Positions 1 to 17,354 of a stretch of DNA of 46,547 bases are shown here, one piece after another; position 1 is the first letter of the stretch, and each line of letters begins with the position of its first letter. The DNA is from a virus, in the UHGV virus genome UHGV-0027832; one strand, 5' to 3'. Made by a program: the position numbers and the translations under genes. A model generated the notes under the pieces. It was not told where the DNA came from. It was given only the letters and a program-made list of their open reading frames with translations, and ran no database searches.

Positions 1-200
<200 letters not shown>

Positions 201-245
201 TCACCAATAAAAAATCCCATCACGTTGGATGGGATTATAGCATGG

Positions 246-688: not shown

Positions 689-698
689 CACTCCACCT

Positions 699-1218: not shown

Positions 1219-1221
1219 CAC

Positions 1222-1428: not shown

Positions 1429-1456
1429 AGTTATATCTCCGGTAAGCCTGATGTAG

Positions 1457-1488
1457 ATTATACTATGCGCTCGGTGTAGATTGGTCAA
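1457..1488 (-). promoter_or_regulatory. Sigma70-like promoter on the minus strand (-35 TTGACC, 17 nt, -10 TAGTAT overlapping TATAAT)
   Basis: Reverse complement of 1483-1488 is TTGACC; of 1460-1465 is TAGTAT; of 1457-1462 is TATAAT. Lies in the TerL/next-gene intergenic gap. Confidence 0.4.
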
Positions 1489-1504
1489 GTGTGGTGATGC
1501 AGAT

Positions 1505-2929: not shown

Positions 2930-3437
2930 GATTACAAAACTCCCCGTGATGTCTCTCTCTTTCTTCCATTATCTTTTTGACTGCATCTTCAATGTTGGAG
3001 AATCTGCCAAGGTTAACCTCCCTGCCGTTTATATTTAATCTCGCCATCCACTTGCATCTTGATTTATCCCAGTACACACCCTTAACCCCTGACGTGTTGT
3101 TCGCCTGTAGCTTTTTGTTGTAACCATTTTGTTGATGGTCAGCCTCTCGCAGATTAACAAAACGATTATCAAGCGTATTGTTGTTTATGTGGTCTATTTC
3201 TTTTTTAGGCCAACTACCAGTCATGTAAAGCCAAGCCAGCCTGTGCGATCTATACCACTTTCTTCCAAAATGAATATAGTGATACGGCCGCTTGCTACCA
3301 ACGGTGCCGCATAATTTTATTGTTCCTGCTGGCTTCCCTGGTTTAGCCCTTCCCTGCTTGTGTGGGTTTTTCCATGTAAAAACTCCGGTGTCAGGATTGT
3401 AATCAAGGATGTGTTTTAATTCTGCTTGCGTAAGCAT
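2922..3437 (-). CDS. HNH homing endonuclease with AP2 DNA-binding domain
   Basis: HINNNTLDNRFVNLREADHQQN (HNH motif) plus GVYWDKSRCKWMARLNINGREVNLGRFSNIEDAV (AP2-like); start chosen at the MLTQ ATG with GAGGAA SD; overlaps the terL start by 8 nt. Confidence 0.8.
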   Translation of the reverse strand: MLTQAELKHILDYNPDTGVFTWKNPHKQGRAKPGKPAGTIKLCGTVGSKRPYHYIHFGRKWYRSHRLAWLYMTGSWPKKEIDHINNNTLDNRFVNLREADHQQNGYNKKLQANNTSGVKGVYWDKSRCKWMARLNINGREVNLGRFSNIEDAVKKIMEERERHHGEFCNHG

Positions 3438-3536
3438 ATATAGATTCCTCATCAGGGCATCATTGAAGTGAATGCGGCAGGCGGTGATGAGTCGCTTTTC
3501 GGGTGCCCCCTAGCCGCATTAATTATTATAAATCAG

Positions 3537-4013
3537 TTACTGTTGCTGCTCCAGCAATTTCTCCAGTCGCTCAAGTCGCGCGGCGAGTTCGGTGATTTCC
3601 TGAATATCAAGGCCAGACTTGATAATATCTGCCATCATCTTTCCGATGTCGGCAGGGACAACGCCAGTGGATACACCCTTGATGATTGCATCCATCTTTT
3701 GCACCGGAGTTCCGTCAGCCGGGAAATCAAATTCCACAGGAGGAGCTACAGGCTTCGGGATGGGGTTAAGTCGCAGGAATATTTCCCGCAACATGCCGGT
3801 GGCCTGAGCATCTTCACATGTCATTGCCCTGTTGATGTAGTACGTGACGAATTCAATCTCATTCATCGGGGTATTTGCAGCACGTAACGCTTCAAGAAGC
3901 ACGGTTCTGTAGCTCTTTCCTCTTGGTGGAGGCTGATTGCTGGATGAAAATTTGTGCTTAGGGTTCGGATTCGCCATTTTATATGTGTCCTTTGAGTAAC
4001 TCACATAAGACAT
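3537..4013 (-). CDS. terS: Putative terminase small subunit
   Basis: 158 aa ORF immediately upstream of the HNH/TerL genes; coiled-coil C-terminus; assigned by position and size. An alternative start is at 3977. Confidence 0.5.
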   Translation of the reverse strand: MSYVSYSKDTYKMANPNPKHKFSSSNQPPPRGKSYRTVLLEALRAANTPMNEIEFVTYYINRAMTCEDAQATGMLREIFLRLNPIPKPVAPPVEFDFPADGTPVQKMDAIIKGVSTGVVPADIGKMMADIIKSGLDIQEITELAARLERLEKLLEQQQ

Positions 4014-4104
4014 ATCTTACCACATGGCGTAGATAAAAAAGAACCCGCCGAAGCGGGTTAAAGGTTGGGTGATGATATGAGTGAAAGCAATGGTGGTTAT
4101 GCGT

Positions 4105-4281
4105 TTATTGTACACCATCATTATCACGCTTGCCAGCATAGCACCATGCGTTTTCATTACGAGTCTGCACATGAACGATTTCAAGCGCATCAGGGAATGT
4201 TTTTGCGACCTTTGCGATGAAATCGTCCAGTTCGTGCTGCTTTGCGAGGTGCCATACCTTCTGCTTAGTGGTTTGCATTAG
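4105..4281 (-). CDS. Hypothetical protein (58 aa)
   Basis: ATG at 4281 with GAGGG SD; the listed longer ORF has a hydrophobic N-terminal extension and no SD. Confidence 0.4.
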   Translation of the reverse strand, partial: LMQTTKQKVWHLAKQHELDDFIAKVAKTFPDALEIVHVQTRNENAWCYAGKRDNDGVQ

Positions 4282-4444
4282 CATAAGCCCTCGTAGAGCA
4301 CATGTATTTAATATCATGCACGCCATTGCCATGCACAACCTCAATGTAATTACCTATCTGTACCATCATGTAGTGACACGTCTTCATGCTATCCCAGTGG
4401 CGCTCCCACATGTTTTGCATTGCGTCGCTAATGTCGTTAAACAT
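4265..4444 (-). CDS. Hypothetical protein (59 aa)
   Basis: ATG at 4444 overlaps the TAA of the upstream gene; GGAGTG SD; below the ORF-track cutoff. Confidence 0.35.
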   Translation of the reverse strand: MFNDISDAMQNMWERHWDSMKTCHYMMVQIGNYIEVVHGNGVHDIKYMCSTRAYANANH

Positions 4445-4757
4445 AATGCTGCCACTCCTTTTTAACCCATGCTATGCGATTCTTGTTGGTGTGAATCAGT
4501 CCTCTTGCTCTTTCTGTTAAATATGGTATTTCTCTACTGTTAAACGGGTAGTCACCATTAAGTCCAGCTTTAATGAATTGCGACCGCATTAACTTTCTTG
4601 CCTGCTCCCTTTCCTTTGGTGTTAACCCTATCGCCTTTAAATGCAATATTAAGGAAACACAAATTCCGCAATTACGACTAAACGGTTTACCTTCTGGTGC
4701 TCCAGTATCAATCCAGTCTGAATATGCTTTATAAAAATCAGCTAATTGATTAAACAT
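4437..4757 (-). CDS. Hypothetical protein (106 aa)
   Basis: ORF with GGAG SD; start overlaps the stop of the 36-aa peptide gene. Confidence 0.5.
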   Translation of the reverse strand: MFNQLADFYKAYSDWIDTGAPEGKPFSRNCGICVSLILHLKAIGLTPKEREQARKLMRSQFIKAGLNGDYPFNSREIPYLTERARGLIHTNKNRIAWVKKEWQHYV

Positions 4758-4857
4758 AACTCACAACTCCTGCAATGGCTGCAACCAGTGCCAGTGCATA
4801 CACAGCAAGGAAGATTTTAGCGCCAGTGGTGTATCGGCGTCGTTGGTGTCTGGTCAT
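4747..4857 (-). CDS. Hypothetical 36-aa transmembrane peptide
   Basis: GGAGATATTAAAATG; sequence MTRHQRRRYTTGAKIFLAVYALALVAAIAGVVSYV; stop overlaps the next ATG. Confidence 0.3.
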
Positions 4858-4920
4858 TTTAATATCTCCACTAAAGCGTGCGCCACATAGAGCGCACTGA
4901 TAATTAATATGAAATGGTAG

Positions 4921-5199
4921 TTATTCACTTTTAGCAAGACTTTCGAATTGCTTTATCGCCATATCATAAACGTCAGGTAACTCATAATTGCGATTTAATG
5001 CGGACTCCAGTTCTGCAATGCGATTTTTCATATGATAATTCTCAACGCTCATTTCTGTGATTCTGTTGAGACATGCCATGTAGTCAGTAAGCTCAACAAC
5101 AGTCACGTAATATCCATCACCATCAGGAGGATGATGAATTGCGCTTCTTGGAACTGAATATGTTTTTGCTTTTACTGTTCCTCGTTGTTCTTCACTCAT
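4921..5199 (-). CDS. Hypothetical protein (92 aa)
   Basis: ORF with ATGA overlap to the upstream gene; coiled-coil-like C-terminus. Confidence 0.5.
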   Translation of the reverse strand: MSEEQRGTVKAKTYSVPRSAIHHPPDGDGYYVTVVELTDYMACLNRITEMSVENYHMKNRIAELESALNRNYELPDVYDMAIKQFESLAKSE

Positions 5200-5429
5200 A
5201 CCCTGACCCCCATAATTTCTTCGTAATAGCCATCTTCTTCAAACTGAATCTTTTCGATTTTGAGCGCATCTTCGTCAGTGATGTCAATCGCTTTGAATTT
5301 GCACTTTGCCAGCACTATGCATCCGGACAGGACTAGCCGCTTATTCCACCAGTGCGCTCTCCTGATTGTCTTGCTGGTATACATTCTGTTCTGCACCACC
5401 CAGAACTCGTATGTTTTGACCTTTTCCAT
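5196..5429 (-). CDS. Hypothetical protein (77 aa)
   Basis: ORF; GGTGGTGA upstream of the ATG. Confidence 0.5.
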   Translation of the reverse strand: MEKVKTYEFWVVQNRMYTSKTIRRAHWWNKRLVLSGCIVLAKCKFKAIDITDEDALKIEKIQFEEDGYYEEIMGVRV

Positions 5430-5464
5430 ATCACCACCATTGAAATAAGAGCGCTGAATCGAGG

Positions 5465-5647
5465 TCAGAACACGATAATAAGCTCATCCATTACTCTTCG
5501 CTTGCCCTCACCATTAAACACGCGCACAACGCGATTTACGCGGATAGACTCCATTGCATTACGTGCCTGTTTACTCATGAAGTTCTGCGCGCCAACGTGA
5601 CCGAGTTCAGGCTCCAGCTTCTCGCGACGATAGATAGTCTTTGCCAT
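5465..5647 (-). CDS. Hypothetical basic protein (60 aa)
   Basis: GGAGA SD 5 nt before the ATG at 5647. Confidence 0.5.
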   Translation of the reverse strand: MAKTIYRREKLEPELGHVGAQNFMSKQARNAMESIRVNRVVRVFNGEGKRRVMDELIIVF

Positions 5648-5650
5648 TTG

Positions 5651-5810
5651 TTATTTCTCCACGTGCGCCTGATACATTGCCTGCCAGATGAAAACCACGG
5701 TGTCACTCATCTCATCATCCGTCATGCACTCAACATCAATATTTTCCATAAGTTCACGAATGCCTGCTTCAATCATTTCTTCTGTTGGTTGGATTGTCTT
5801 GTTGCTCATC
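5651..5810 (-). CDS. Hypothetical acidic protein (52 aa)
   Basis: GAGGT SD; ATG at 5810; stop overlaps the SD of the next gene. Confidence 0.4.
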
Positions 5811-5990
5811 TTGTTAAACCTCATAAGAGTTAATTGTTGCCTTAATTCGACGGCGATACCACTGCATGATGTGCTCGTTATGCCAGTTGGTCATTTTGTT
5901 ACTCCTTATACCCTGATTTAGAAACTGCCACTGCGATAATGATGAATGCCACGATAACCAGACTGGCGATAAGTTCTAGTGATGCGCCCG

Positions 5991-6176
5991 TCATTTCTTC
6001 GATGCCTTATATTCATCCTCAGTCATCGCATAAGCCTCGCAAATCATGTTTGCTGCATCAATGATTGCATTTGAACGAATGTCAGCAGGAAGGCTTGGAA
6101 CCTGTTGCGCCAATGCCATGCATATATCGCTGAACAACTTCATCTGGTCGATGCTGTACGTGCTTTCTTCTTCCAT
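5991..6176 (-). CDS. Hypothetical protein (61 aa), first gene of the early leftward operon
   Basis: GGGGGTGAAGAG SD before the ATG at 6176; the promoter at 6207-6235 lies just upstream. Confidence 0.5.
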   Translation of the reverse strand: MEEESTYSIDQMKLFSDICMALAQQVPSLPADIRSNAIIDAANMICEAYAMTEDEYKASKK

Positions 6177-6206
6177 CTCTTCACCCCCGTTTGTTTCGAT
6201 GAGTTC

Positions 6207-6235
6207 AATCTACATCAGTTGCGATTCTACGTCAA
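6207..6235 (-). promoter_or_regulatory. Sigma70-like early promoter on the minus strand: TTGACG-N17-TAGATT
   Basis: Reverse complement of 6230-6235 is TTGACG; 17-nt spacer ending in GATG; reverse complement of 6207-6212 is TAGATT. Same architecture as the promoters at 25356 and 27113. Confidence 0.45.
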
Positions 6236-6263
6236 CATGCAGAGAAAGAAAAAGCATGGCTAA

Positions 6264-6287
6264 ATGTTAGTAAACGTTAGCTAACAT
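6264..6287. promoter_or_regulatory. Dyad-symmetric operator-like element ATGTTAG-N10-CTAACAT containing the palindrome GTTAGCTAAC
   Basis: GTTAGCTAAC at 6277-6286 is a perfect palindrome; outer arms ATGTTAG and CTAACAT are inverted repeats; lies just upstream of the early leftward promoter. Confidence 0.3.
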
Positions 6288-6462
6288 ATATAGTTACATG
6301 TATTACTAATAGTAACCTTTGTTTATTACCTCTATAAAGTATATTAAGATCTTCTTTATATTTATTATAGATATTAATACCTTACACTACAGAAACACGA
6401 AAACCAGCAGTTAAGCTGGTTGATTTGTTAATAAATTTCGTTAATTTTGAATCCCAAGTTAT

Positions 6463-6724
6463 CGGGAAGCGAAATTCCTTTTATTTTCAGTATTTTCCGT
6501 TCGCTTCCCAGCTTCCCGAAAATACCCACCCCTTTTTTTATGATGAGCTTTTGTTTGTCCATTTTTTTTAAGTCGGGAAGCGAACACATAAACTATTGAT
6601 TTTACTTAGTATTGGCTTCCCGAGAATTTTTCTCATTTACCTATATACCATTGAAAGATAAAGGAAAAATTAAGCTCTGAAATATTAATACGCTTTTTCG
6701 GGAAGCGTGTCAACTCAGGAAGCA
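6463..6724. repeat. Iteron cluster: six to seven copies of CGGGAAGCG(A) in both orientations within an AT-rich intergenic region; candidate replication origin or control region
   Basis: Copies at 6463(+), 6501(-), 6512(-), 6574(+), 6615(-), 6699(+), and a degenerate copy at 6716(+). 6464-6473 and 6500-6509 form a perfect 10-bp inverted repeat. Flanked by A/T runs; sits upstream of the primase-helicase operon. Confidence 0.5.
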
Positions 6725-6829
6725 AAGTATGTAGGTTGCTATTAAGTGTTTCTTCGTGTGCTTGCTGAATTATAGAAAAGTTGATATATTAAATTGAGTT
6801 TACTGTTGATTGATTGTCTGGAGGTTGTC

Positions 6830-7045
6830 ATGTACAGGTTTGGTAGCGCAATGGCTGAGGTGTATGAGTTTGTTAGCGGGATGTCGATTGGAGAGGTGCG
6901 ATTTTTTGTGGTAGATGATTTCCGTGCCAATAACAGTATTGAAAAATTCAGGGCGAGCCTGTGCTGTGTTGCGAAAGATAATTCATGGCTTTTTGTAACC
7001 AGAAAGATGGAAGAAGGCGAAGTGTCTGTTCGGAGAATTAAATGA
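6830..7045 (+). CDS. Hypothetical protein (71 aa), first gene of the rightward replication operon
   Basis: GGAGG SD 5 nt before the ATG at 6830; stop overlaps the next ATG (ATGATGA). Confidence 0.45.
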   Translation: MYRFGSAMAEVYEFVSGMSIGEVRFFVVDDFRANNSIEKFRASLCCVAKDNSWLFVTRKMEEGEVSVRRIK

Positions 7046-9375
7046 TGATTGGTTATGAAGATTACCGCAAATGTGGCTTCCCTATTATTGGAATCCATGC
7101 AATGGATATCGACCGCAATTGCACATGCGGTGATCCAGAATGCAATGCTGCAGGTAAGCATCCGGTTATGAGCAACTGGCAGCTTGGAGTTATATGGGCT
7201 GATGACCAGATTGAGAATATGGCTGAATATGGTCAGTTGCAGTCATTTGGTGTCCTTGTGAATGGTTATCTTGTCGTTGATATTGACCCACGCAACGGAG
7301 GTAATAATGGATATGAATCGCTTTGTGATGCCTTAGACGTAGAGCTTGCTGACGAAGCAGGTTTTACGGTCAAGACTGGTGGTGGTGGTCGCCACATTTA
7401 TTACAAACTTCCTGAAGGAATAAAGCTGCGCTCTCATGACAGAAGGTTTAAGGGTATTGACTTTAAATCATCTGGTTTTGTTGTTGGCTGCGGCTCATTC
7501 CATAAGTCAGGTAACTTTTATGAAGCTGAGCATGGCTCCCCTTCAGAGATAACTGAATGTCCATCTGAACTTATTGAGCTTTTGTTGCGCCCTGAGAGAA
7601 CGGAAGACGAGGTTTTCACGCTTGACAGTAAAAATTACAGCATTGCCGAAATGGAGGATATGCTCAAATACATCAAAGATGGTGATGAGTATGACCCATG
7701 GCTTCATGTAGGCATGGCTATCCACGAAGCTACAGAAGGCAATGGTTTTGAGCTTTGGGATAGGTGGTCATCGCAGTTCAGCAAGTACAGAGCTGAAGAG
7801 ATGGACGCAAAATGGCATTCCTTTGGAAAGGACGGTGTTAGCGAAAAGATAACCGAAGCAACGCTGGTTTATCTCGCGCAAGAGGGAGGGTGGGTAAGGC
7901 AAGTAACTTTTGAGGCTACTCCAGAGGAAATTGAGAAACTTGAGTCTTTCGAGCGAGAGATGGCAATGGGTGTTGGTGAATGCCCTGTAGAGTACAAAAG
8001 TGTTGATGTCCGTTATCCCCCTGGATTTGTTGGTCGCCTTACGGCGTGGATTAATAAGAACTGTGCAGAGAAGCGAGAGAATATTGCAGCACTTGCCGCA
8101 TTGCATGCCGCATCCATGATTTGCGGAGCGTCATCTGATATTTACCTTACAAAAAGGAAGGCTTTGCCAAATCTTTTTGCTGTTGGTATAGCTGGTTCAG
8201 GTTCAGGTAAGGGTGATGTCCTTGCTGCGCTACAAAAGATAATTGATTGCTCAGGATTGAGTAAGACTGTCGCCGGTAAGATACGTTCAGAGCGTGCGAT
8301 ATATGAAGGTCTTTGCGCTAACCAGATGTTTAATATCATCATGGATGAGATTGGGATAAAACTTGGGAGTGTTGTTGGTCAGAAAGTAAGCGAGTACAAC
8401 ATGGCAACCGCTGGTGCGATCATGGAGGCTTACACGTCAGAAGTTCTTTATTGTGACCAGCGGGTTACTGAGGATTTCATTAAGTCTTTCGAAAAGAGAA
8501 AGGCTATGCTGTTGATGGCTATTGAGGAAAATGAAATACAGGCAGACCCCGTTGACATTAAGTGTCAGTTTGATGATGTGATAAACAGAATTGACGGAGC
8601 TATAAGGAATCCATTTTTTTCAATCTTTGGTGTGTCTACTGATGATCAGTTTAAGCGCCTTATTACTGAAGAAAACATTAAGTCAGGTCTTATGGGTCGC
8701 GCAATGATTATGCAGGAGTTGCAGGAGATTGCTGACGAAAACGAAAACGTCAACTACTGCGATCTGCCAATGGATATGCAACTGACCATAAAAACAATAA
8801 TAAATGGCGGAACTGCTGGGCACAAAAACTGGACAGACTCAATAATCAGTCAAAAAGAAAGACGGATTATAAAAGCTACGCCTGAAGTTTCTCAGCTCGC
8901 TAAGGAGTTCTTCTCATGGATTAAAACCGTTGCAAGAAAGCATGTAGAAAACGGCACTGGTTATCACCCACTGATAAACAGATGCGCTGTAAAGGTGGCA
9001 AAGATTGCTGGCATTCTAGCGTGCGATACTGGAGTCATAACCATGGAGCACTTGAGATATGCGGTGGCATTAACAATTAAATCAACAAGCGATCTGATGA
9101 TGCGTGCTGACAGTATCGCCGGAGCGAAGTCTAAAGCTATGGAGGAAAGAATTGAAGGTATTTTCTCCATGGTTAAAGAATATGTGAAGAGAGGAATGAC
9201 CAAAACAGCAATGGTTAGAGGGGTGGCAAAAGAAGGTGGGTATAAACGTGCTGATGTCGAGAGGTGCGTAGAGAAGTTGTTATCAGATGGTATTATTTGC
9301 ATTGATGAAAATGCAAAAAGAACATCTCACAACGTAATAATTTACAAATTAACAAATGATGAGGTTGAGATATGA
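7042..9375 (+). CDS. Bifunctional primase-polymerase/helicase (prim-pol N-domain, PriCT-like middle domain, D5/P4-alpha-like NTPase)
   Basis: 777 aa. N-terminal prim-pol-like stretch FGVLVNGYLVVDIDPRNGG; PriCT-like DPWLHVGMAIHEATEGNGFELWDRWSSQFSKY; P-loop VGIAGSGSGKGD. Confidence 0.85.
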   Translation: MMIGYEDYRKCGFPIIGIHAMDIDRNCTCGDPECNAAGKHPVMSNWQLGVIWADDQIENMAEYGQLQSFGVLVNGYLVVDIDPRNGGNNGYESLCDALDVELADEAGFTVKTGGGGRHIYYKLPEGIKLRSHDRRFKGIDFKSSGFVVGCGSFHKSGNFYEAEHGSPSEITECPSELIELLLRPERTEDEVFTLDSKNYSIAEMEDMLKYIKDGDEYDPWLHVGMAIHEATEGNGFELWDRWSSQFSKYRAEEMDAKWHSFGKDGVSEKITEATLVYLAQEGGWVRQVTFEATPEEIEKLESFEREMAMGVGECPVEYKSVDVRYPPGFVGRLTAWINKNCAEKRENIAALAALHAASMICGASSDIYLTKRKALPNLFAVGIAGSGSGKGDVLAALQKIIDCSGLSKTVAGKIRSERAIYEGLCANQMFNIIMDEIGIKLGSVVGQKVSEYNMATAGAIMEAYTSEVLYCDQRVTEDFIKSFEKRKAMLLMAIEENEIQADPVDIKCQFDDVINRIDGAIRNPFFSIFGVSTDDQFKRLITEENIKSGLMGRAMIMQELQEIADENENVNYCDLPMDMQLTIKTIINGGTAGHKNWTDSIISQKERRIIKATPEVSQLAKEFFSWIKTVARKHVENGTGYHPLINRCAVKVAKIAGILACDTGVITMEHLRYAVALTIKSTSDLMMRADSIAGAKSKAMEERIEGIFSMVKEYVKRGMTKTAMVRGVAKEGGYKRADVERCVEKLLSDGIICIDENAKRTSHNVIIYKLTNDEVEI

Positions 9376-9794
9376 TCAATTACAAGTATCTGGTGATGAG
9401 AGGTTTGTATGACTATTTTGAGTCAGAAAATCCTGAGCGCGCACATGATAACGCAATATCCATGATGACAGGGAAACACCTGATGGAAGTTTACTACTGG
9501 AAAATGCCCGTATTCCGCTGCAATATGGGTATCTGCATTGATGATGACGTACTGTTTTGTCGAATACAATATGAAAACAATGTAGGTATAGTGACAGCAT
9601 CGTACAGGGATGTTGCAAGAAAATCCGGGAACTGGCATCCAAGCGAAGTTTTTGCAGGTGACGCACTATTTAATTTCTGTAAGGCGTTTGGTGTCTTGTA
9701 TGAGGATGTAAGCAAAGAGTATAGCGGAAGGCGTGAGAAAGATAGCTTAAGTTCCAAGGGCGTGACTAACTACAAGGATAAAAACCATGGCTAA
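9372..9794 (+). CDS. Hypothetical protein (140 aa)
   Basis: ORF; ATGA overlap with the primase gene. Confidence 0.5.
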   Translation: MINYKYLVMRGLYDYFESENPERAHDNAISMMTGKHLMEVYYWKMPVFRCNMGICIDDDVLFCRIQYENNVGIVTASYRDVARKSGNWHPSEVFAGDALFNFCKAFGVLYEDVSKEYSGRREKDSLSSKGVTNYKDKNHG

Positions 9795-9990
9795 CACAAT
9801 GAGAACAATATCAGGAGAACTTTGCCGCTCAGAGGGTTCATGGCATTTCAGGCCGCATGGTTATTCGACGTGGTTTTTCTGGAGTGGTATTAACAAAGTA
9901 TGGATTCGCTCTAATTACCACGTTCTTGATGATTACTGGCATAGATTTTGTGTTGGTTATGTTGATATTTCAAAATTGATGATTAAGTGA
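9787..9990 (+). CDS. Hypothetical protein (67 aa)
   Basis: ORF overlapping the previous stop; Trp-rich. Confidence 0.4.
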   Translation: MANTMRTISGELCRSEGSWHFRPHGYSTWFFWSGINKVWIRSNYHVLDDYWHRFCVGYVDISKLMIK

Positions 9991-10000
9991 GGGCAAGGAA

Positions 10001-10261
10001 ATGGATGTAAAGGATAAAGTTTTATACGTGATGAGAAAGAGAAAAACCATTGAGGAGGCACTTGGGATTTGTTGCAAGTTCTCCGTAGCTACGTGGAGCT
10101 TACGCCTATCGATGGTGAATGAATTTCCTGATGATGAATGGACAGCAGCAAAGTTACGGAAGGTTCTGATTTCTCTTTGTAAGGATGGCTTTGTATCAAA
10201 GGATCTAAATAACAGTCGCATTGGTAACTCAGTATGGATTCTGGAGGAAAAAAATGGCTAA
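10001..10261 (+). CDS. Hypothetical protein (86 aa)
   Basis: ORF with a GGGCAAGGAA SD-like upstream sequence. Confidence 0.45.
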   Translation: MDVKDKVLYVMRKRKTIEEALGICCKFSVATWSLRLSMVNEFPDDEWTAAKLRKVLISLCKDGFVSKDLNNSRIGNSVWILEEKNG

Positions 10262-10559
10262 CCTTCAACTTGTCGTCAAAGGTGAATACTTCGATGCCAT
10301 GATTCGCGGAGAGAAAACGGAAGAGTATCGCCTTTTCAATGACTACTGGAAGAAACGCCTTATTAACTTTAAAGATAGCGGACAGATTGGAAGGAAGTAC
10401 GAAAGGTTAATTATCACAAAAGGATATCCAAGGAAGGACGATAAATCCAGGCGTATTGATATCCCATACGATGGATGGACGGTTAAAACCATCACACATC
10501 CTCACTTCGGTCCAGATCCAGTGGAAGTGTTCGCAATAAAAGTTAACATCAAAGCATAA
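10254..10559 (+). CDS. ASCH-domain-like protein (101 aa)
   Basis: GGAGG SD before the MANLQLV start; LQLVVKGEYFDAMIRGEKTEEYR resembles the ASCH beta-barrel core; followed by a terminator. Confidence 0.55.
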   Translation: MANLQLVVKGEYFDAMIRGEKTEEYRLFNDYWKKRLINFKDSGQIGRKYERLIITKGYPRKDDKSRRIDIPYDGWTVKTITHPHFGPDPVEVFAIKVNIKA

Positions 10560-10562
10560 CGA

Positions 10563-10591
10563 AAAGCCCGCAAACGCGGGCTTTATTATTT
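10563..10591. terminator. Bidirectional rho-independent terminator
   Basis: AAAGCCCGCAAACGCGGGCTTT hairpin followed by ATTATTT; lies between convergent genes. Confidence 0.7.
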
Positions 10592-10830
10592 AACAATCCA
10601 TTTTGTAACTGCTGGTCTTAAATCTTCCTTTCTGAAAATTCCACCAGTAAGTTTCTCGGCATCAATTGCTGCTGTAGCGCTAATTCTTCCTCTTGAAACC
10701 CACTGATTAACAGCCTGTTTTGACACACCAAGAAACCTTGCCAGTTGTGATTGCCCTCCAACATAATCAATCAGCTCTGACAGCTTCGTCTGTTCCATTT
10801 CTCTTATCTGTTCTGCGATGCTTTTCATGT
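10586..10830 (-). CDS. Cro/CI-type HTH DNA-binding protein (81 aa), the only minus-strand gene inside the replication module
   Basis: GAGGT SD before the ATG at 10830; helix-turn-helix stretch QSQLARFLGVSKQAVNQWVSRGRIS. Confidence 0.65.
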
Positions 10831-10880
10831 GTTTACCTCTACTTTTCGTATGCAGCAATAATGAACTCAAAAAAAATTTT

Positions 10881-10941
10881 CGTCAAGGTATTGCGTTTAC
10901 CATCACGTTGACGTATCTTTAAGTCACACCAGCGGTATGCT
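10881..10941. promoter_or_regulatory. Divergent promoter/operator region with inverted TTGACG hexamers
   Basis: CGTCAA at 10881-10886 and TTGACG at 10908-10913 are inverted repeats 21 nt apart. Candidate -10 elements are TATCTT (plus strand) and CATTAT (minus strand). Lies between the Cro-like gene and the Sak4-like gene. Confidence 0.35.
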
Positions 10942-10962
10942 GAGTTAAATCGAGAGGACACT

Positions 10963-11805
10963 ATGAGCTTATCAATGATTCAAAAACCAAAACCAGCAGC
11001 ACCGATCATAACATTGGTTGGTACTCCAGGGGTTGGCAAGACAACTCTTGCGGCGCTATTTCCAAACCCAGTGTTTATTCAGGCAGAAGAGATCACTGGT
11101 GTTTTTGATGACTGGGATGATGAAAAGAAACCTGACTCATTTCCTGTGCTTAAGCGCGCTGATGCTAAACGAAAAACAAGCACAAAGGATGACTTGCTGT
11201 CACAGCTACGCGCATTAATTACTGAGGAACATAATTACAAAACGCTTGTAATTGACTCAATCACAAGCCTGCATTCAATGTTTGAGCATGAGGTTTGTGA
11301 AAATTACGGCGTTGACAACGTTGGTTCTGCGGCTGGTGGTTACAACAAAGGATATATTGTTGTTTCTGAAATGCACGCTGAAATAATAAATGCATGTAAG
11401 TATCTTCGCAAAGAAAAAGGGATGAGCATTATTTATCTTGCACACGCAGGTGTTAAAAAGATGAAGAATCGCCCTGATGCTGATGAATACACTGTTTACA
11501 CGCTTGATATGCATGATGCTTCTGTTTCTGGTTATGTGAATCTTAGTGATGCTGTTATTTACATCAGAAATGAGGAGTTTGTAAAAGGAACTGAGACTGA
11601 TAAGAAAGGGCAAGTCACCAAGTTTGGGAAGGTGGTTCAGACTGGTCAGCGAGTTCTTATCACCTCTGGTGATGGTCGTATTGGGTATGTTAATGCTAAA
11701 AACAGATACAACCTTGAGCCTGAAATTCCTTTTGAAAAGGGTGAGAACCCGCTTTTGAGTGAGATTAAATATTATGCATCTCTACGAGATAACGAAACAG
11801 CTTAA
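10963..11805 (+). CDS. RecA-like/Sak4-like AAA ATPase (recombination protein)
   Basis: 280 aa; Walker A LVGTPGVGKTT; GAGAGGA SD preceded by TAAATCGAGAGGACAC, a motif shared with the gene at 12271. Confidence 0.75.
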   Translation: MSLSMIQKPKPAAPIITLVGTPGVGKTTLAALFPNPVFIQAEEITGVFDDWDDEKKPDSFPVLKRADAKRKTSTKDDLLSQLRALITEEHNYKTLVIDSITSLHSMFEHEVCENYGVDNVGSAAGGYNKGYIVVSEMHAEIINACKYLRKEKGMSIIYLAHAGVKKMKNRPDADEYTVYTLDMHDASVSGYVNLSDAVIYIRNEEFVKGTETDKKGQVTKFGKVVQTGQRVLITSGDGRIGYVNAKNRYNLEPEIPFEKGENPLLSEIKYYASLRDNETA

Positions 11806-12253
11806 TGAGCTGCTGTCGATGGATGATATTCCACGGGAGCAGATTGAAGATACCATCAATCTTATTGAAGAGGAGTTTGAAGGAAAGGCCGAAATGGTTG
11901 CTGCTTACATTCGTGAGCTTGAAGCTGATGAGGCTGGACTTAAATCCGAGATTGACCGTCTTTCTGAGCGTAAGCGTGTTTTAGTTGCTAAGATTGATAA
12001 CCTTAAAGATTATCTTCGTCAGAACATGATGGCGTCAGGAAAGACAAATATCAAAGGTAAGTTGTTCAGTATCACGCTTGGCAAACCGTCACCAGTTCTT
12101 GATGTGTTTGTTCCTGTTGAGCAACTTCCTGAGCAGTACCGTGTTGTGAAAGTGTCGGCAGATAACGCGGCAATTAAAAATGCGATTAAGGCCGGAATTG
12201 AAATTAATGGTTGTGCCATCACCGACGGCAAACCGAAACTGATCATCAAATAA
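11774..12253 (+). CDS. Siphovirus Gp157-family protein
   Basis: MHLYEITKQLNELL... coiled-coil protein typical of Gp157 proteins found next to Sak4 and SSB; start chosen at 11774 to limit overlap. Confidence 0.6.
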   Translation: MHLYEITKQLNELLSMDDIPREQIEDTINLIEEEFEGKAEMVAAYIRELEADEAGLKSEIDRLSERKRVLVAKIDNLKDYLRQNMMASGKTNIKGKLFSITLGKPSPVLDVFVPVEQLPEQYRVVKVSADNAAIKNAIKAGIEINGCAITDGKPKLIIK

Positions 12254-12270
12254 ATCGAGAGGACACAAAA

Positions 12271-12792
12271 ATGGGTTTCTGGAATCTTTCTGACGGTAAA
12301 GCTGTTGAATCTAAATCTGAATTTGAATTGGGTGGTGGTTTCGAAGTAATTCCTGATGGTAGCCGTGTTCTTGCTGCCGTTGAAGAGTGTAAAGACGATC
12401 AGTGGGAAGGTGAGCGATTCTTCAATCTTAAGTGGCGAATCCTTGATGGTGAGTATAAAAATCGCATCATCTTCCAGAAGCTGAAAGTATTTAGCTCAAA
12501 AGAAAAGCAGCGCGACAATGCTATCACTATGCTTGCAGCAATTGACGCAAACGCTGGTGGTAAGCTGATGGCATCAGGGAAAGAGCCGACTGATTTTGCC
12601 ATTGCCAGTGCGCTTGCAAATCGTCCAATGATTCTTCTTCTACGTGTTTGGGAATCTGAGGATAAGCAAAAAACTGGTAACTATGTGGCTGGTGTATTTG
12701 GTCGTCAACAGACAAAAACAGCATCTGCTCCTAAGCAATCTGCACCGTCTAACGAGCCGCCGGTTGACTTCGATGAAGATGTGCCATTTTGA
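12271..12792 (+). CDS. DUF669-type single-strand DNA-binding protein with an E. coli SSB-like C-terminal tip
   Basis: GAGAGGA SD; C-terminus APSNEPPVDFDEDVPF closely matches the E. coli SSB tail PSNEPPMDFDDDIPF; genomic context is Sak4 plus Gp157. Confidence 0.65.
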   Translation: MGFWNLSDGKAVESKSEFELGGGFEVIPDGSRVLAAVEECKDDQWEGERFFNLKWRILDGEYKNRIIFQKLKVFSSKEKQRDNAITMLAAIDANAGGKLMASGKEPTDFAIASALANRPMILLLRVWESEDKQKTGNYVAGVFGRQQTKTASAPKQSAPSNEPPVDFDEDVPF

Positions 12793-12809
12793 TTTAAATA
12801 AGTAACCAA

Positions 12810-12833
12810 GGGCCATTCGTGGCCCTTTTTATT
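12810..12833 (+). terminator. Rho-independent terminator
   Basis: GGGCCATTCGTGGCCC hairpin followed by TTTTTATT. Confidence 0.7.
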
Positions 12834-12845
12834 CGAGATGACATT

Positions 12846-13034
12846 ATGAAAGAAAATAAAGAAAAACATGAAAAGTTCATGAGTTTTTCCGCGTGGAGAG
12901 AGTTTGGTTTTACAGTAATAAAAGGTGAAAAATCAAGCTTTAGAAGTCCAGATGGTATTCCATTATTCAATGAGTCTCAGGTTACTGAGATAGATGATGA
13001 TACTTTAGATCTAAATCATTGCGATTTATATTAG
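12846..13034 (+). CDS. Hypothetical protein (62 aa)
   Basis: The listed ORF starts at GTG inside the terminator; the first ATG is at 12846; weak SD. Confidence 0.3.
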   Translation: MKENKEKHEKFMSFSAWREFGFTVIKGEKSSFRSPDGIPLFNESQVTEIDDDTLDLNHCDLY

Positions 13035-13044
13035 GATTTGAATT

Positions 13045-14910
13045 ATGAAATACACGCTAAGGCCATACCAACAGGAAGCAGTTGACGCGGCTATGGCTCA
13101 CATTAGAAGCACCATCTCATCATGCGTTATCATCCTCCCGACAGGTGCAGGAAAATCCATGGTTGTAGCAGAACTTGCATCTCGTATTTATGGCATGAGC
13201 AAAAAGCGAGTTTTGTGCATTGCTCCCACCAGTGAATTGGTTGTTCAGAACAGGGCTAAATACCTACTCACAGGAGAACCAGCCAGCATGTTCAGTGCAA
13301 AGGCTGGCCCCAAAAACCTGCGTCATCCGGTGGTGTTTGGTTCACCAGTTACAATCAAGAACTCAATAGAGATGTTTGGTGATAAGTATGGTGCTGTCAT
13401 TATTGATGAGTGCGATGGAATAACACCAACCATTAAATTTATTATTAATGAAATGAAGCGTCGCAATCCAAAACTGCGTGTTATTGGAATGACTGCTACT
13501 CCTTACCGCCTTGGAACTGGATACATATACAAAGAGCACTATCTAGACGGTCCCACAGATGATGAAACTGCCATTGACCCATATTATGATAAGGTTGTTT
13601 ATGAGCTTGAGGCTAAATTCCTAATTGAAAACGGATATCTTACGCCTCCAGTAACAGAGCCTGTTTTTGACGAGTATGATACGTCTTGTCTTGAAAAGGA
13701 TAAGTTAGGTCGGTACACGACAGCTTCAGTTGAAAAAGCGATGGTTGGCAAGGGAAGGAAAACATCACGCATTGTTGAAGATATTATCCGTCGCTCTGTT
13801 AATCGGCGCGGAACGATGATTTTTGCCAGCACTAAGAAACACGCTATGGAGATAATGGAGTCACTTCCTCCCGGTTCTTATAGTTATGTTTTTGGTGATA
13901 TGCCAACAGCAGATCGCAACAAGGCAATATCAGACTTCAAGGCACAAAAAGTTAAATACATCGTCAATCAGAATATCCTTACTGTAGGGGTTGATGTTCC
14001 TCATTGTGATCATATAGCAGTAATGAGAGCCACAGAATCACCAAGACTCTACCAGCAAATAATTGGCAGGGGGACGCGTCTTTATGAAGGTAAGGAAGAC
14101 TTTCTTGTCAGCGATTACGCAGGCAACATTCAGCGCCACTTTTCTGAGACAGGGGACTTGTTCACTCCAGAAATAAAAGCAACAAGGAAAAAACCATCCG
14201 TGCCAATGGATGTCAAATGCCCGTTATGTGGCTTTATCAATGAATTTGGCGTGCGCCCAAATCCGGAAAATATGGCAGTTGATAAAGAAGGTTACTGGCT
14301 TGATTTGGCTGGTGACAGGGTGATGATTGATATTTTTGATAAATCAGGTGAAAAAATTGGAAGTAAGCCTATGCCCGCTCATTTTGGGAGAAGGTGTAAA
14401 AACTACGTTATGCTCGGGCCATTAAGGGAAATGCACAGGTGTACTTATAAGTGGTCGGTGAAAGAGTGTCCTGATTGTGGATTTGAAAATGATATAGCGG
14501 CAAGAAACTGCACATCATGCGGCGCTGAAATCATTGACCCAAACCAAAAGCTAAAAGAAGAAGCTGACAGGCTTGATTCTTCTCCTTATGCAACCAAGCA
14601 ATCAAGCGTAACCATGATGAACATCATGAAGCATTACGTTTCAAGCGGTGAAGATTTGGTACACGTAAAATTTGCTATTGAACAGAAACCATTTTTTGTT
14701 AGCAAGTTCTACAATCCAAACTCTGAGAAGGAAGGGATGAAGAAGGAGTGGGAAGAATTTTGTGAGAAGTGTTTTGGTGAACATAACATGTCAATTGATG
14801 ATGCAATAGCAAAAAGAGATGAGGCTGTCGCGCCATCAGTGATTATGTTCAGAAGAGATAAGGGTAGTAAATATTTCAACGTTAAAGGCATGTATTGGGG
14901 AGTATTATGA
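13045..14910 (+). CDS. SF2 DEAD/DEAH-box helicase with C-terminal zinc-ribbon repeats
   Basis: 621 aa. Walker A ILPTGAGKS; motif II VIIDECD; MTATPYR; helicase-C block IIGRGTR; CxxC pairs CPLCG, CPDCG and CTSCG. Confidence 0.85.
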   Translation: MKYTLRPYQQEAVDAAMAHIRSTISSCVIILPTGAGKSMVVAELASRIYGMSKKRVLCIAPTSELVVQNRAKYLLTGEPASMFSAKAGPKNLRHPVVFGSPVTIKNSIEMFGDKYGAVIIDECDGITPTIKFIINEMKRRNPKLRVIGMTATPYRLGTGYIYKEHYLDGPTDDETAIDPYYDKVVYELEAKFLIENGYLTPPVTEPVFDEYDTSCLEKDKLGRYTTASVEKAMVGKGRKTSRIVEDIIRRSVNRRGTMIFASTKKHAMEIMESLPPGSYSYVFGDMPTADRNKAISDFKAQKVKYIVNQNILTVGVDVPHCDHIAVMRATESPRLYQQIIGRGTRLYEGKEDFLVSDYAGNIQRHFSETGDLFTPEIKATRKKPSVPMDVKCPLCGFINEFGVRPNPENMAVDKEGYWLDLAGDRVMIDIFDKSGEKIGSKPMPAHFGRRCKNYVMLGPLREMHRCTYKWSVKECPDCGFENDIAARNCTSCGAEIIDPNQKLKEEADRLDSSPYATKQSSVTMMNIMKHYVSSGEDLVHVKFAIEQKPFFVSKFYNPNSEKEGMKKEWEEFCEKCFGEHNMSIDDAIAKRDEAVAPSVIMFRRDKGSKYFNVKGMYWGVL

Positions 14911-15362
14911 TTTTTCCAGAAGGCGTTAAGGTATATGGCGATTTGGATTACAGAAACAAAAAGTGCCCGTCAGAAGATGCTGAGCTGGAGACTTTTGTGA
15001 ATCAGATAAGGAAGCTATATCCTGACTTTGCAAGAGTTATGATTCATGTGCCAAATGAAGGAAAGCGTAAAGGGTATGAAGTTGAAAACCTGAAGAAAAA
15101 AGGCGCGCTAAACTTCGGGGCGTCAGACATCATTATCATCGGAAAGCAATCATTCGTTATGGAGATGAAGAGAATGGATCATACTTTATCAAAGTGGCAA
15201 CCTGGACAAATGGCATACCTCAAGGCTGCAAAAGAATTAGACTCCTTCGCATGTGTATGCCTCGGCTGGGAGGCGGCGATGATGGCATTTAACGACTGGA
15301 GAGCAATAAATTACCCAAACTATAAAAAACCATCAGAGCCATTGATATTTGATGGTTTTTAG
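14895..15362 (+). CDS. VRR-NUC domain nuclease (PD-(D/E)XK), terminated by TAG
   Basis: IHVPNEGKRKGY...ASDIIIIGKQSFVMEMKRMDHTLSKWQPGQ fits the VRR-NUC D...E.K pattern; the helicase plus VRR-NUC pairing is common in phages; stop is TAG at 15360-15362. Confidence 0.75.
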   Translation: MGSIMIFPEGVKVYGDLDYRNKKCPSEDAELETFVNQIRKLYPDFARVMIHVPNEGKRKGYEVENLKKKGALNFGASDIIIIGKQSFVMEMKRMDHTLSKWQPGQMAYLKAAKELDSFACVCLGWEAAMMAFNDWRAINYPNYKKPSEPLIFDGF

Positions 15363-15476
15363 CAGCAACGCCAGCAATCAGTCCAGCAACCGCAAAGACA
15401 ACAGCAGCCACCAAAACAACAAAGCCCACAAGGAGGCAATGAGCCTCCTATGGACTTCGACGATATTCCGTTTTAA
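15363..15476 (+). other. In-frame continuation after the VRR-NUC TAG, encoding a Gln/Pro-rich linker plus SSB C-terminal tip (QQRQQSVQQPQRQQQPPKQQSPQGGNEPPMDFDDIPF*)
   Basis: Same frame as 14895..15362 with no intervening stop other than TAG; ends in NEPPMDFDDIPF, nearly identical to the E. coli SSB tail; the only internal ATG gives the 8-codon ORF MDFDDIPF. Confidence 0.5.
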
Positions 15477-15479
15477 GCG

Positions 15480-17354
15480 TTAAAAGTTTATCGCTTTCCC
15501 AATTATTAATACATCCACGACAACTGTTGACCAGGCCGTGTTACCATCACCACGGCCTACTATAATCTGAACATCAGTGGATGTGTGGTTATAACTTGCA
15601 CAATTCCATTGATACATAGGGACGTTATTTGGATACTCTCTCGGAGTGGCAATAACCTGATATCCCTCACCATCGACACTCAACTGAAACGGTAGCGTTA
15701 TTGTGGTTGTGCCGAAGCTCTGGCCTGATGTTCTGGTTATAGTCTTGGAGTAACGCAAGAATCTTTGGTCGTTTGGTAATGAACCGGTATTACCCCCTGA
15801 TGCAAACCAGTCACTAAGTCCTGTTGGCCCGATAAGAAATCCATTGGGGTATGCTGCGGACATATACTTGGTGGTGCTATAGGTGTTCTCATTAATAAGT
15901 GCACCTGTACCCCAAACATCAGCTAAGTCTCCGGAAGCATGGTTGACACGGTTAATGGTGAAGCGGCTATTAGTACCCAAATCCCATATACGGCGACCTG
16001 TGTTGAGGAATCTGATATTGCTAAGAGTAAACTGAGAACCGTTGCTGTCGCCCTGAACCCATAATAAGTTGGTGGGAACAGGTGATTGCTGGGCTTCAAC
16101 GTTACCTGCCATGCAGTTAGACCATGTTAAGGCAACACGTCCAGATACCTTAACTACTGCATCGGAGCCTGAGTTCTCAAAACCACACTCGTCAATCGTA
16201 TACACACTGTTATAGTCCGATGACTCCAACCAGTACGCAGCCTTTTTAGTAAAATCATTAGCGCACTTGGATATAACAGAGTACCCACTCTTCATTCGCA
16301 CAGCATAATTAGAATTCTGGAAATAGGATTCTGTAATCCATGCAGATGTGCCTGCTTTTTTCCATATTCCGTAGTTTGATGAGCTAAACATTTGGCAACC
16401 ATGAACGCGAAACACCCATGAACCGTTATCGCAAATATCTGCTTCAGTGAATCCAGTAAACTTACAGTCATTAATATTTGTATTCTGTGTCCTGCCCAGG
16501 TAAATTCCGTAGGAGCCACCAGCGGTTGAGGTGAACTGCAATCCTTCTATATATACAGCCTGTGGTTGATTCACCACAGCGTTGTCCGGGTTTGTTGATG
16601 ACACGACAATAGCAGCGTTAACATCCATAACAATTCCGCTCTCATCAACAGGCAATCCGGAAGTCTCCGTTGAAGAGTTTAGATTTATTACGGTTCGTCC
16701 GCCATAGCAAAGAATACGGCTGTTACGAAATCCTTTTTGCTTATATATCAGAGGTTTATTTATGTTGTATGTGACTGCTTTGTCGAATAATACCGCTTTA
16801 CCATTTAGCGTGGCATAGTCTAGCATTTCCTGTAATGCGGATGATGCATCACTCCCATCTTCTGGGGTTCCAAATTGTGCTGGAGTTACAAACCACAGCA
16901 TGTCATAAACGGAACCGATACCAGCAGGAGCCTTTATTAATTTTGATCCTATATCTTGATTGTTTAATTCTGAACGCAAGGCGGCATCACCAACACTAAC
17001 CCATGCTCCTTGTTTAACCTCACCAGTGCCATCTGGAGTTGAGCCCGCTGGAACGATTTTTGGGAAATCCCCATCCCAACGGTAATATTCTCCGTTCGCT
17101 TCATAGCGCAGTGTCTGATTGGGAAGCGTCAATGTTGCTCCATCTTCGAAGCTGTCCATTGTGATGTAGCCATATTTGCGGATAGCTTCTTCTGCTGTGT
17201 ACTGGAATCCAGCAATAGTCCATCGGCGCACGCCAAAGCGATCTGTATAGTAATGCACGTCAGATGTCACTACCTCGTCAATCTTCCCGGCATTAAACTT
17301 GAGGTCGCGCGGGTCTTCTGACGGAATTGGTTTATTGGTTGGTGTGGTAGCCAT
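15480..17354 (-). CDS. Tail fiber/tailspike protein with a probable right-handed beta-helix (pectate-lyase-like) domain; putative receptor-binding or depolymerase protein
   Basis: 624 aa, last gene of the tail operon. The N-terminal ~120 aa look like an adaptor domain; the remainder is rich in N/G/S/T repeats typical of beta-helix tailspikes. AAGGAG SD upstream. Confidence 0.65.
   Translation of the reverse strand: MATTPTNKPIPSEDPRDLKFNAGKIDEVVTSDVHYYTDRFGVRRWTIAGFQYTAEEAIRKYGYITMDSFEDGATLTLPNQTLRYEANGEYYRWDGDFPKIVPAGSTPDGTGEVKQGAWVSVGDAALRSELNNQDIGSKLIKAPAGIGSVYDMLWFVTPAQFGTPEDGSDASSALQEMLDYATLNGKAVLFDKAVTYNINKPLIYKQKGFRNSRILCYGGRTVINLNSSTETSGLPVDESGIVMDVNAAIVVSSTNPDNAVVNQPQAVYIEGLQFTSTAGGSYGIYLGRTQNTNINDCKFTGFTEADICDNGSWVFRVHGCQMFSSSNYGIWKKAGTSAWITESYFQNSNYAVRMKSGYSVISKCANDFTKKAAYWLESSDYNSVYTIDECGFENSGSDAVVKVSGRVALTWSNCMAGNVEAQQSPVPTNLLWVQGDSNGSQFTLSNIRFLNTGRRIWDLGTNSRFTINRVNHASGDLADVWGTGALINENTYSTTKYMSAAYPNGFLIGPTGLSDWFASGGNTGSLPNDQRFLRYSKTITRTSGQSFGTTTITLPFQLSVDGEGYQVIATPREYPNNVPMYQWNCASYNHTSTDVQIIVGRGDGNTAWSTVVVDVLIIGKAINF

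Follow-up and report, generated by a model that had tools for sequence, protein, structure and literature searches.

The end of the nuclease gene and the segment behind it

The DNA analyzed here is a stretch of 46,547 nucleotides from a virus (UHGV virus genome UHGV-0027832); the window means this stretch at its full length. Within it, a gene for a putative VRR-NUC nuclease ends in TAG, and the same reading frame continues behind the stop codon into a segment encoding the C-terminal tail of an Escherichia coli-type single-stranded DNA-binding protein (SSB). A first-pass annotation, made from the letters alone, offered two explanations of this tail: (a) the nuclease is made with an SSB-like extension by amber suppression or readthrough, or (b) the tail is the remnant of an ssb gene that was fused to or replaced by the nuclease. 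The features at this end of the gene are as follows.

14907-15362, + strand: nuclease gene (VRR-NUC fold, 151 aa), from the open reading frame (ORF) listing and its translation; the TAG at 15360-15362 is its native stop
15360-15362, + strand: junction between the nuclease stop and the ssb remnant; the ssb homology begins at the AG of TAG
15363-15476, + strand: remnant of a bacterial-type ssb gene (pseudogene fragment), 37 codons for a disordered linker and an acidic tip, then TAA
15432-15473, + strand: tip-coding stretch GGNEPPMDFDDIPF, the best conserved portion of the remnant, used as a crossover site in relatives

The start codon of the nuclease gene is the ATG at 14907, and it shares bases with the stop codon of the helicase gene before it (ATGA); in the program-made ORF list, the gene begins at the TTG at 14895. 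Beyond the TAG, 37 sense codons follow in the same frame (15363-15473; QQRQQSVQQPQRQQQPPKQQSPQGGNEPPMDFDDIPF) and end at TAA (15474-15476), so that the in-frame tail reported in the first-pass annotation is real. Neither ATG, GTG nor TTG was found at the start of this segment, which has no start and ribosome-binding site of its own as an ssb gene would. No OB-fold, which takes about 110-120 aa, was found in it either; about 120 codons are missing, and the frame upstream is that of the nuclease. The parts of an SSB that are present are the linker and the acidic tip (...PQGGNEPPMDFDDIPF). The sole in-frame ATG lies at 15450, eight codons before the end, and the short ORF MDFDDIPF that begins there was named in the first-pass annotation as the only possible independent ORF of the segment.

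A megablast search was performed with 14700-15600 of the window as the query against 50,697 phage records. Seven records (five phages, including Sa179lw, YX3973, ECO111 5-P and Sf11; two were deposited twice) matched at 93-94% through helicase, nuclease and tail together. The majority of the other matching records, chiefly Skatevirus-cluster Salmonella phages, matched query positions 662-775 alone, which correspond to 15361-15474 of the window, and these tail-only matches fall under a gene annotated as single-stranded DNA-binding protein. Between 15361-15474 and the last 117 nt of the ssb gene of phage LPST10, the identity was 90.6% (E = 2e-34 in the phage collection and about 3e-41 pairwise). 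Intact ssb genes with this 3' end are present in LPST10 and about 70 other Skatevirus-type records, and the LPST10 SSB (ARK07740.1, 160 aa) ends in ...DDSGKQQRQQSGQQPQRQQQQPKQQSPQGGNEPPMDFDDDIPF. The blastn alignments to every intact ssb allele compared begin at 15361, and the TAG is aligned with an AAG or CAG codon of ...DDSG(K/Q)QQRQQ... in the intact SSBs (AAG, Lys, in LPST10). At the corresponding position, LPST10 carries the full gene convergent with the tailspike gene, and an intact ssb was read in 40 of the 80 IMG/VR loci retrieved. A convergent long ORF, which was checked separately, was present in only 12 of 68 tip-matching IMG/VR loci. The 90.6% match indicates that the tail is homologous to the 3' end of ssb and is more than SSB-like; judged from these alignments, the resemblance is true homology with a real ssb gene and not chance. 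The lack of stops in the segment is a legacy of a gene that was functional until recently.

In the window, the tip has lost one Asp codon and is thus one Asp shorter than the DFDDDIPF tips of 24 aligned intact LPST10-family alleles. Codon 7 of the remnant is Val (GTC, not GGC), which was seen in none of the intact alleles sampled. A Ser/Asn-rich ORF of 44 aa in the +2 frame (15349-15483, + strand) overlaps the remnant, and Sf11 has a counterpart with the annotation hypothetical protein gp12 (Sf11_gp12). This ORF was rejected as a real gene: it looks like a compositional by-product of the CAA/CAG-rich linker when this is read out of frame, is annotated once and is absent from the Klebsiella-type junctions described below.

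The label VRR-NUC was also examined. With the Pfam model VRR_NUC (PF08774), no hit was obtained even at E <= 10, and none was precomputed for any of 57 homologue clusters; the PHROGs match of the protein is phrog_824, function unknown. In contrast to the failed family model, the AlphaFold2 model of the nuclease (pLDDT 87.6) was matched best by Foldseek to chains of 4QBL, a VRR_NUC domain protein (probability 1.00, TM 0.73-0.77, rmsd about 2.0 Å), followed by 4QBO and the FAN1 nuclease domain. D74, E86, K88 and Q101 are invariant among 33 aligned homologues, and by analogy the D...E-x-K pattern with the conserved Gln may be the catalytic residues. Thus, the label given in the first-pass annotation holds for the predicted fold and these residues, and it fails as a family assignment by the Pfam model.

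The enterobacterial homologues of the nuclease that have 151-152 aa share a C-terminal ...I-x-x-F (PLIFDGF, PIDIESF, SIQIDSF and PITINHF). The members in ECO95 1-6-1 and gmqsjt-1, which have no stump of ssb behind the gene, have the homologous Phe as their last residue, and the terminator follows directly. A fused nuclease-tail ORF was not found among the 57 homologue clusters (from a collection of 5.8 billion proteins), all of which are 152 aa or shorter. The TAG is, by this comparison, the native stop codon of the nuclease. An origin of the last 10-13 residues of the nuclease from ssb or from non-coding DNA was considered and rejected, since the ...I-x-x-F end is conserved in the 151-152 aa homologues, including the stump-free ones. 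The C-terminal tail itself, ...I-[D/E/N/K]-x-F-COOH (window 15318-15359; alignment columns 150-166), is missing in shorter homologues. The confidence of its predicted structure is low (pLDDT about 57-64), and it may act as a motif for peptide docking.

The junction with a Skatevirus-type backbone

In LPST10, the gene order is helicase, a 141-aa nuclease homologue, hypothetical protein, exonuclease, recombinase and ssb, and the last of these faces the convergent tail-fibre/tailspike gene. In a whole-genome blastn, the window was collinear with LPST10 over 13-5996 and 16978-46443, mostly at 82-95% (two short pieces at 75-77%). Between 5996 and 16978, the sole match to LPST10 was 15361-15474. The following two features belong to this region.

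5997-15360, + strand: replication/recombination module whose DNA is not homologous to the Skatevirus counterpart, delimited by blastn against LPST10; its right end is the junction
12271-12792, + strand: intact phage SSB gene (DUF669 type, 173 aa) ending in ...SNEPPVDFDEDVPF, from the ORF listing (Pfam DUF669, 26.5 bits; phrog_9002, E = 1.7e-68)

The module encodes a Sak4-like annealase (phrog_124), a Gam-like protein (Sipho_Gp157, phrog_253), the DUF669-type SSB, a 71-aa ORF, a ResIII/DEAD helicase and the nuclease. The DNA to the left of 15360 is not homologous to LPST10, and the nuclease family encoded there has relatives of its own; from 15361 the sequence is 90.6% identical to the LPST10 ssb. 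Since the two differing blocks have nothing homologous between them but the ssb tail, this tail marks the junction of a module swap. The stump would be the point at which a Sak4-type module met the Skatevirus-type backbone, inside the ssb gene of the backbone. The start of homology at the AG of the stop codon is consistent with a microhomology joint of 2 nt. The possibility that one lineage merely lost the genes for the hypothetical protein, the exonuclease, the recombinase and SSB by an internal deletion was rejected, because the helicase and the nuclease also lack DNA homology with LPST10; the difference extends over the whole of 5997-15360, which means replacement of the module and not deletion.

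The helicase of the window (13045-14910) is a protein of 621 aa without an intein. In the relatives L227, L231 and L233-L235, whose nuclease protein is identical, the helicase has 968 aa and carries Hint and LAGLIDADG homing-endonuclease (intein) domains.

The separate intact SSB at 12271-12792 was not mentioned in the first-pass annotation. The label of phrog_9002 is 'single strand DNA binding protein', and since the protein ends in an E. coli-type tip, the phage already makes a tip-bearing SSB. By its end ...APKQSAPSNEPPVDFDEDVPF, an E. coli-SSB-like tip is here placed on an SSB that Pfam leaves outside the canonical SSB family. A direct repeat between the stump and the tip-coding part of this gene (12750-12790) was also considered, and the match of only 20/26 nt is not meaningful.

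The order of events that we infer is as follows. In the ancestral backbone, ssb would have been the last gene of a Skatevirus-type module, next to the terminator shared by the relatives and facing the tailspike gene. A different module (Sak4-like annealase, Gam-like protein, DUF669 SSB, helicase and nuclease) would then have been joined to it by illegitimate recombination, with the joint between the own stop of the nuclease and the ssb linker and with the 2-nt AG as the overlap. This joining would have removed the start and the OB-fold of ssb and left 37 codons, which would be in frame by chance; the prior chance of this frame is 1 in 3. Translation would end at the native stop of the nuclease, and the tail would not be produced. 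The stump would have persisted as a young sequence that is repeatedly overwritten by crossovers with intact ssb alleles of co-infecting phages during tailspike exchange. We consider, with a probability of about 0.9, that the tail is a non-coding young relic of ssb at a module-swap joint, in frame by chance, and not a readthrough extension. Explanation (b) was essentially right, in that the tail appears to be the 3' stump of a bacterial-type ssb displaced at the swap boundary by the nuclease-bearing module.

Stop codons, frame and sequence change at related junctions

The junctions compared were taken from GenBank phages, from IMG/VR contigs found by pattern, from contigs encoding exactly the nuclease protein of the window, and from one metagenome contig, which was the one extra contig yielded by a metagenome scan for junction variants. 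Among the 17 distinct sequences of window-type junctions, the stop codon was TAG in 14 and TAA in three. A sense codon was not found at any of the 24 distinct in-frame junction sequences examined; a search pattern that left the codon free retrieved stops only. The carriers of TAA include Sa179lw, Sf11 and a widespread group around L227, whose nuclease protein is identical to that of the window; this group comprises at least six contigs, and these come from six samples or more.

A second type of junction is found in the Klebsiella phages XY3, VLCpiS13c, 6991, RSU-F4K5, L168, L173 and L212, where TGA or TAA is followed by a stump of 22-24 codons from another ssb allele family, ...KPP(A/V)NEPPMD(F)DDDIPF. 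Six in-frame junctions of Klebsiella phages had TGA in five and TAA in one. In VLCpiS13b, the stop is TGA and the stump QQPSNSPPMEDDIPF lies in the +1 frame relative to the nuclease. The stump of L016 has a second in-frame TAG inside. IMEP24 has 12 linker codons fewer than the window, with the frame kept. The remnant is entirely lost in ECO95 and gmqsjt-1, and no extension is present in P400 either, although the nuclease is conserved.

These results bear on explanation (a), in which the TAG would be read as Gln (supE) or passed by leakiness and the nuclease would gain an SSB linker and tip, by which it would be recruited to SSB partners or compete with host SSB clients. The frame is open for 37 codons, the tip is short of the E. 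coli consensus by one Asp only, TAG is the commonest stop of the window-type junctions, and the extra stop in L016 is also TAG. However, neither one leaky stop nor its context is conserved, since TAG, TAA and TGA occur at the homologous position, and an extension that is in frame and free of stops is not maintained among the relatives, as VLCpiS13b, L016, ECO95, gmqsjt-1 and P400 show. The lack of a fused homologue in the 57 clusters points in the same direction, as do the changes found only in stumps, which look neutral and include one stop (see below). An amber suppressor tRNA was not found in the window by ARAGORN, in agreement with the first-pass annotation; the single tRNA detected is Met with the anticodon CAT (27533-27609, + strand).

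The first-pass annotation had also pointed to a second TAG-interrupted ORF, which indeed exists at 43150-43446 (+ strand), with TAG at 43282-43284 in an Ead-like ORF of 98 codons. In the Akira homologue, the codon is TGG (Trp), and both halves align along the whole 98-aa protein. From this alignment, the second TAG is an ordinary nonsense mutation, a change of Trp and not of a Gln site, and it gives no support for recoding of amber as Gln. Taken with the varying stops and the broken frame, a readthrough fusion is very improbable. We give the same slight chance to a narrower form of it, in which the TAG-C lineages, including the window, would make a small share of a readthrough isoform (a large share in supE hosts) that docks the nuclease on host proteins binding the SSB tip or on SSB-coated DNA, this use having been lost in the TAA and TGA lineages.

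Another possibility is that a free tip peptide is made as a decoy that titrates host SSB partners, either from the ATG at 15450 or, in the Klebsiella phages, by termination and reinitiation (MKPS...DFDDDIPF). An ATG directly follows the stop in XY3, 6991, RSU-F4K5, L173 and L212, and GGAGG is located 13 nt upstream of the ATG at 15450. However, the codon after the stop is ATT in L168, which shows that a reinitiated micro-ORF is not conserved, and no window-type junction has an ATG at this place. The GGAGG and the internal ATG are merely the GG and M codons of every intact ssb, and a spacing of 13 nt is poor. Moreover, the tip is truncated in phage ukendt, the remnant is absent from several relatives, and the SSB encoded by the phage itself already supplies a tip. 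The chance of such a peptide is, in our estimate, even smaller than that of the fusion.

An error of sequencing or assembly was considered as well, by which the TAG or the continuity of the frame would be wrong and the true gene would be a longer ORF or be followed by unrelated sequence. A single-base error could create a TAG, and nothing specific favors this here. A public contig of 46,666 bp (L228) has the same TAG with zero mismatches to the window over the compared stretch, although it may not be an independent assembly. The codon is likewise a stop in sixteen further distinct related sequences, which come from isolates as well as metagenomes, and the C-terminus of the nuclease is conserved as an end. 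An artifact is thereby left with a negligible probability.

We then asked what kind of change the stumps carry. Codons found in 11 stumps but absent from all of 21 distinct intact alleles were defined as private changes, which are the likeliest to have arisen after truncation. They comprised 11 nonsynonymous changes and one stop against four synonymous changes (16 events). This proportion is close to 3:1, the rough expectation under neutrality. A leave-one-out comparison of the intact alleles gave 27 nonsynonymous against 17 synonymous changes. The private changes are consistent with neutrality and do not prove it.

Some remnants are chimeric. In YX3973, the linker is of the LPST10 family, and from GAGCCGCCGATGGA on the stump matches the intact family-2 ssb locus L088, with zero mismatches over about 100 nt (tip, terminator and 3' end of the tailspike gene) and 93% identity over the aligned 280 nt. 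In L229, an insertion of the Skate type, GG(W/R)GTN, is found in the GGWG region behind a junction of the window type. Tailspike cassettes are common to phages with the scar and phages with an intact ssb at 88-95%, from the first base after the ssb stop. The chimeric stumps mean that silent variation arose in functional genes and was imported by recombination. For this reason, third-position variation was rejected as proof of selection on the stumps: it was imported from intact alleles in YX3973 and L229, the two remnants for which import was demonstrated, and the private changes look neutral.

Several points weigh against a relic that is not translated. The private events number 16, and they are not significantly different from the changes in the intact alleles, whose linker is weakly constrained. 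Nearly all remnants have kept an undamaged acidic tip, and where stumps differ from one another, it is mostly in the third base of a codon, a pattern that purifying selection could produce as well. If the two in-frame types of junction arose independently, this would be a slight coincidence, with a chance of about 1 in 9. In E. coli, termination at UAG is relatively inefficient when C is the next base, and trace readthrough is possible there; in supE hosts, readthrough would be substantial.

Tailspike exchange beside the remnant and comparison with known systems

To the right of the remnant lies the tailspike gene, a part of which differs from the relatives.

15477-16977, - strand: receptor-binding part of the tailspike (whole gene 15480-17354, 624 aa), an independently exchanged cassette

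The stop codon of the tailspike gene is 3 nt from the stop of the remnant, on the opposite strand. The homology of the window to its relatives ends at 15474, the first base of TAA, and resumes at 16963-16978. For the DNA of the receptor-binding part (15480-16977), no match was found in the 50,697 phage records, and the protein is only about 32% identical to other E. coli tailspikes; neither comparison gave a candidate for the donor. Among the relatives, the identical nuclease protein is paired with six tailspikes (555, 624, 634, 673, 728 and 747 aa), and the left edge of each swapped cassette is in or just past the stump. The relatives share a terminator after the stump, AACCCCGCCGAAGCGGGGTT, which is missing from the window; unlike in the relatives, no terminator-like hairpin was found between the convergent stump and tailspike gene of the window. 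In L232 (about 2070-2110), a nested scar directly follows the stop of the stump: about 15 nt from the end of a nuclease gene of the ECO95 type (ATCAACCACTTCTAA), then the terminator common to the relatives, and after it a different tailspike. Thus, incoming cassettes carry along DNA that flanked the tailspike gene in the donor. Judged by these edges and the chimeric stumps, the stump serves as a crossover point, or left homology arm, during the exchange of tailspike cassettes.

Fragments of the same flank were found outside the siphoviruses, those of the ssb tail in non-coding DNA of three unrelated phage families. In Kayfunavirus IMEP24 (L004, 3990-4118), ~30 nt of the 3' end of the nuclease gene, the TAG and the stump are located 3' of a tail-fibre gene, as non-coding DNA. 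In Gamaleyavirus PBM-2 (L005, 4001-4090), the last ~60 nt of ssb and the terminator are located 3' of a tailspike gene. In Phapecoctavirus ukendt (L006, 3001-3039), 39 nt of the stump with a truncated tip are non-coding and lie just 3' of a tail-fibre/tailspike gene. Kuttervirus ECML-4, a myovirus of 157 kb, has an unannotated pseudogene (NC_025446.1, about 89270-89500; L019, 2500-2730) that corresponds to the C-terminal half of the siphovirus nuclease, is interrupted by a stop and is followed by the terminator. It covers 229 nt at 90.8% identity to ECO95 and is located 3' of tailspike gp192, a distant homologue of the tailspike of the window; by comparison with ECML-4, the premature TAG of ECO95 is a secondary mutation. 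Shared tailspike bodies were not found between IMEP24, PBM-2, ukendt or ECML-4 and the compared siphovirus loci, the flanks alone being shared. Further matches to the ssb tail are listed for SP5M, PhAPEC5, PhAPEC7 and PDP351P4.

A related motif has been described by Pas et al. (2023; Virol J 20:174; PMC10408124). In that article, 'motif three' is a conserved 20-nt predicted terminator downstream of receptor-binding protein (RBP) genes in Gamaleya-, Kutter-, Justusliebig-, Kayfuna- and Nouzillyvirus, and it is proposed to be a recombination hotspot; ssb is not mentioned in the text. We infer that motif three is the terminator AACCCCGCCGAAGCGGGGTT. The stump fragments suggest an origin for this conserved motif downstream of RBP genes.

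These observations also raise the possibility that the stump is a selected DNA element, kept as a portable homology arm that boosts the acquisition of tailspike and host-range cassettes, also across families. The crossovers inside the remnant, the six tailspike types beside one nuclease protein, the ssb-tail fragments with or without AACCCCGCCGAAGCGGGGTT just 3' of tailspike or tail-fibre genes in IMEP24, PBM-2 and ukendt, the 229-nt nuclease pseudogene and terminator 3' of the ECML-4 tailspike, and the hotspot proposed independently by Pas et al. for a terminator-like motif downstream of RBP genes would all fit it. However, hitch-hiking of donor flanks gives the same pattern without selection. 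The remnants also decay, as is seen in the truncation in ukendt, the deletions in IMEP24 and the loss in ECO95 and gmqsjt-1, and in the window neither the terminator nor any homology to the right of the tip is left, which keeps its stump from pairing on that side any more. Selection for such an element is doubtful in our view, though it deserves some weight; a relic that recombines without being selected in the phages that carry it is preferred.

For the relic, the meaning is different at the levels of protein and DNA. At the protein level, no tethered nuclease is indicated. At the DNA level, the stump would locate to the base the graft of a Sak4-type module onto a Skatevirus-type backbone, and a stretch of about 40 nt, which is constant by selection in functional ssb genes, would act as a landing pad for the exchange of tailspikes and host range. 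The stump and nuclease fragments beside tailspikes in T7-like, N4-like, rV5-like and Vi1-like phages would give the direction of transfer, from a siphovirus donor to other families, and the stump would tag the donor of tailspike cassettes that reached podoviruses and myoviruses. For annotation pipelines and searches for recoding, the case is a caution that a motif-bearing in-frame extension behind a stop can be a young pseudogene fragment.

Compared with programmed readthrough, for example that of the Qbeta A1 protein, the locus likewise has an open in-frame extension behind a single stop. In contrast to such systems, the identity of the stop and the frame are not conserved, the few private changes give no clear sign of purifying selection, and the extension is absent in close relatives. 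The Skatevirus-type ssb genes such as that of LPST10, and E. coli SSB, are alike in the Gln/Pro-rich disordered linker and the ...GGNEPPMDFDD(D)IPF tip, to which the last 37 codons of the window correspond (90.6% nt identity to LPST10), and the stump of the window is, as in the Skatevirus-type genes, the last element on the + strand and faces the tailspike gene. It differs from them in having neither a start nor an OB-fold, in its position behind the stop of an unrelated gene and in the deleted Asp of the tip; it is a fragment and not a gene.

With the RBP-flanking motifs of Pas et al. (2023), our locus shares the arrangement seen in the relatives, where the stump and then the terminator AACCCCGCCGAAGCGGGGTT lie immediately beyond the 3' end of the tailspike gene, the crossovers in this flank, and the occurrence of the stump, the terminator or both 3' of tailspikes in Gamaleyavirus, Kayfunavirus, Phapecoctavirus and Kuttervirus. 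It differs in that ssb is unmentioned there and that the window itself has lost the terminator.

The likeness is also seen with the mosaic module boundaries of tailed phages: a point junction, 2 nt of microhomology, flanks with different nearest relatives and a truncated gene at the joint. Scars of illegitimate recombination are part of the modular theory of phage evolution. Unlike such boundaries, the stump of the window is in frame with the upstream gene, encodes a recognizable protein-interaction motif, from which too much is easily read, and still recombines with intact alleles. In kind, the feature is ordinary for phage genomes, a mosaic scar that is a modestly useful evolutionary marker.

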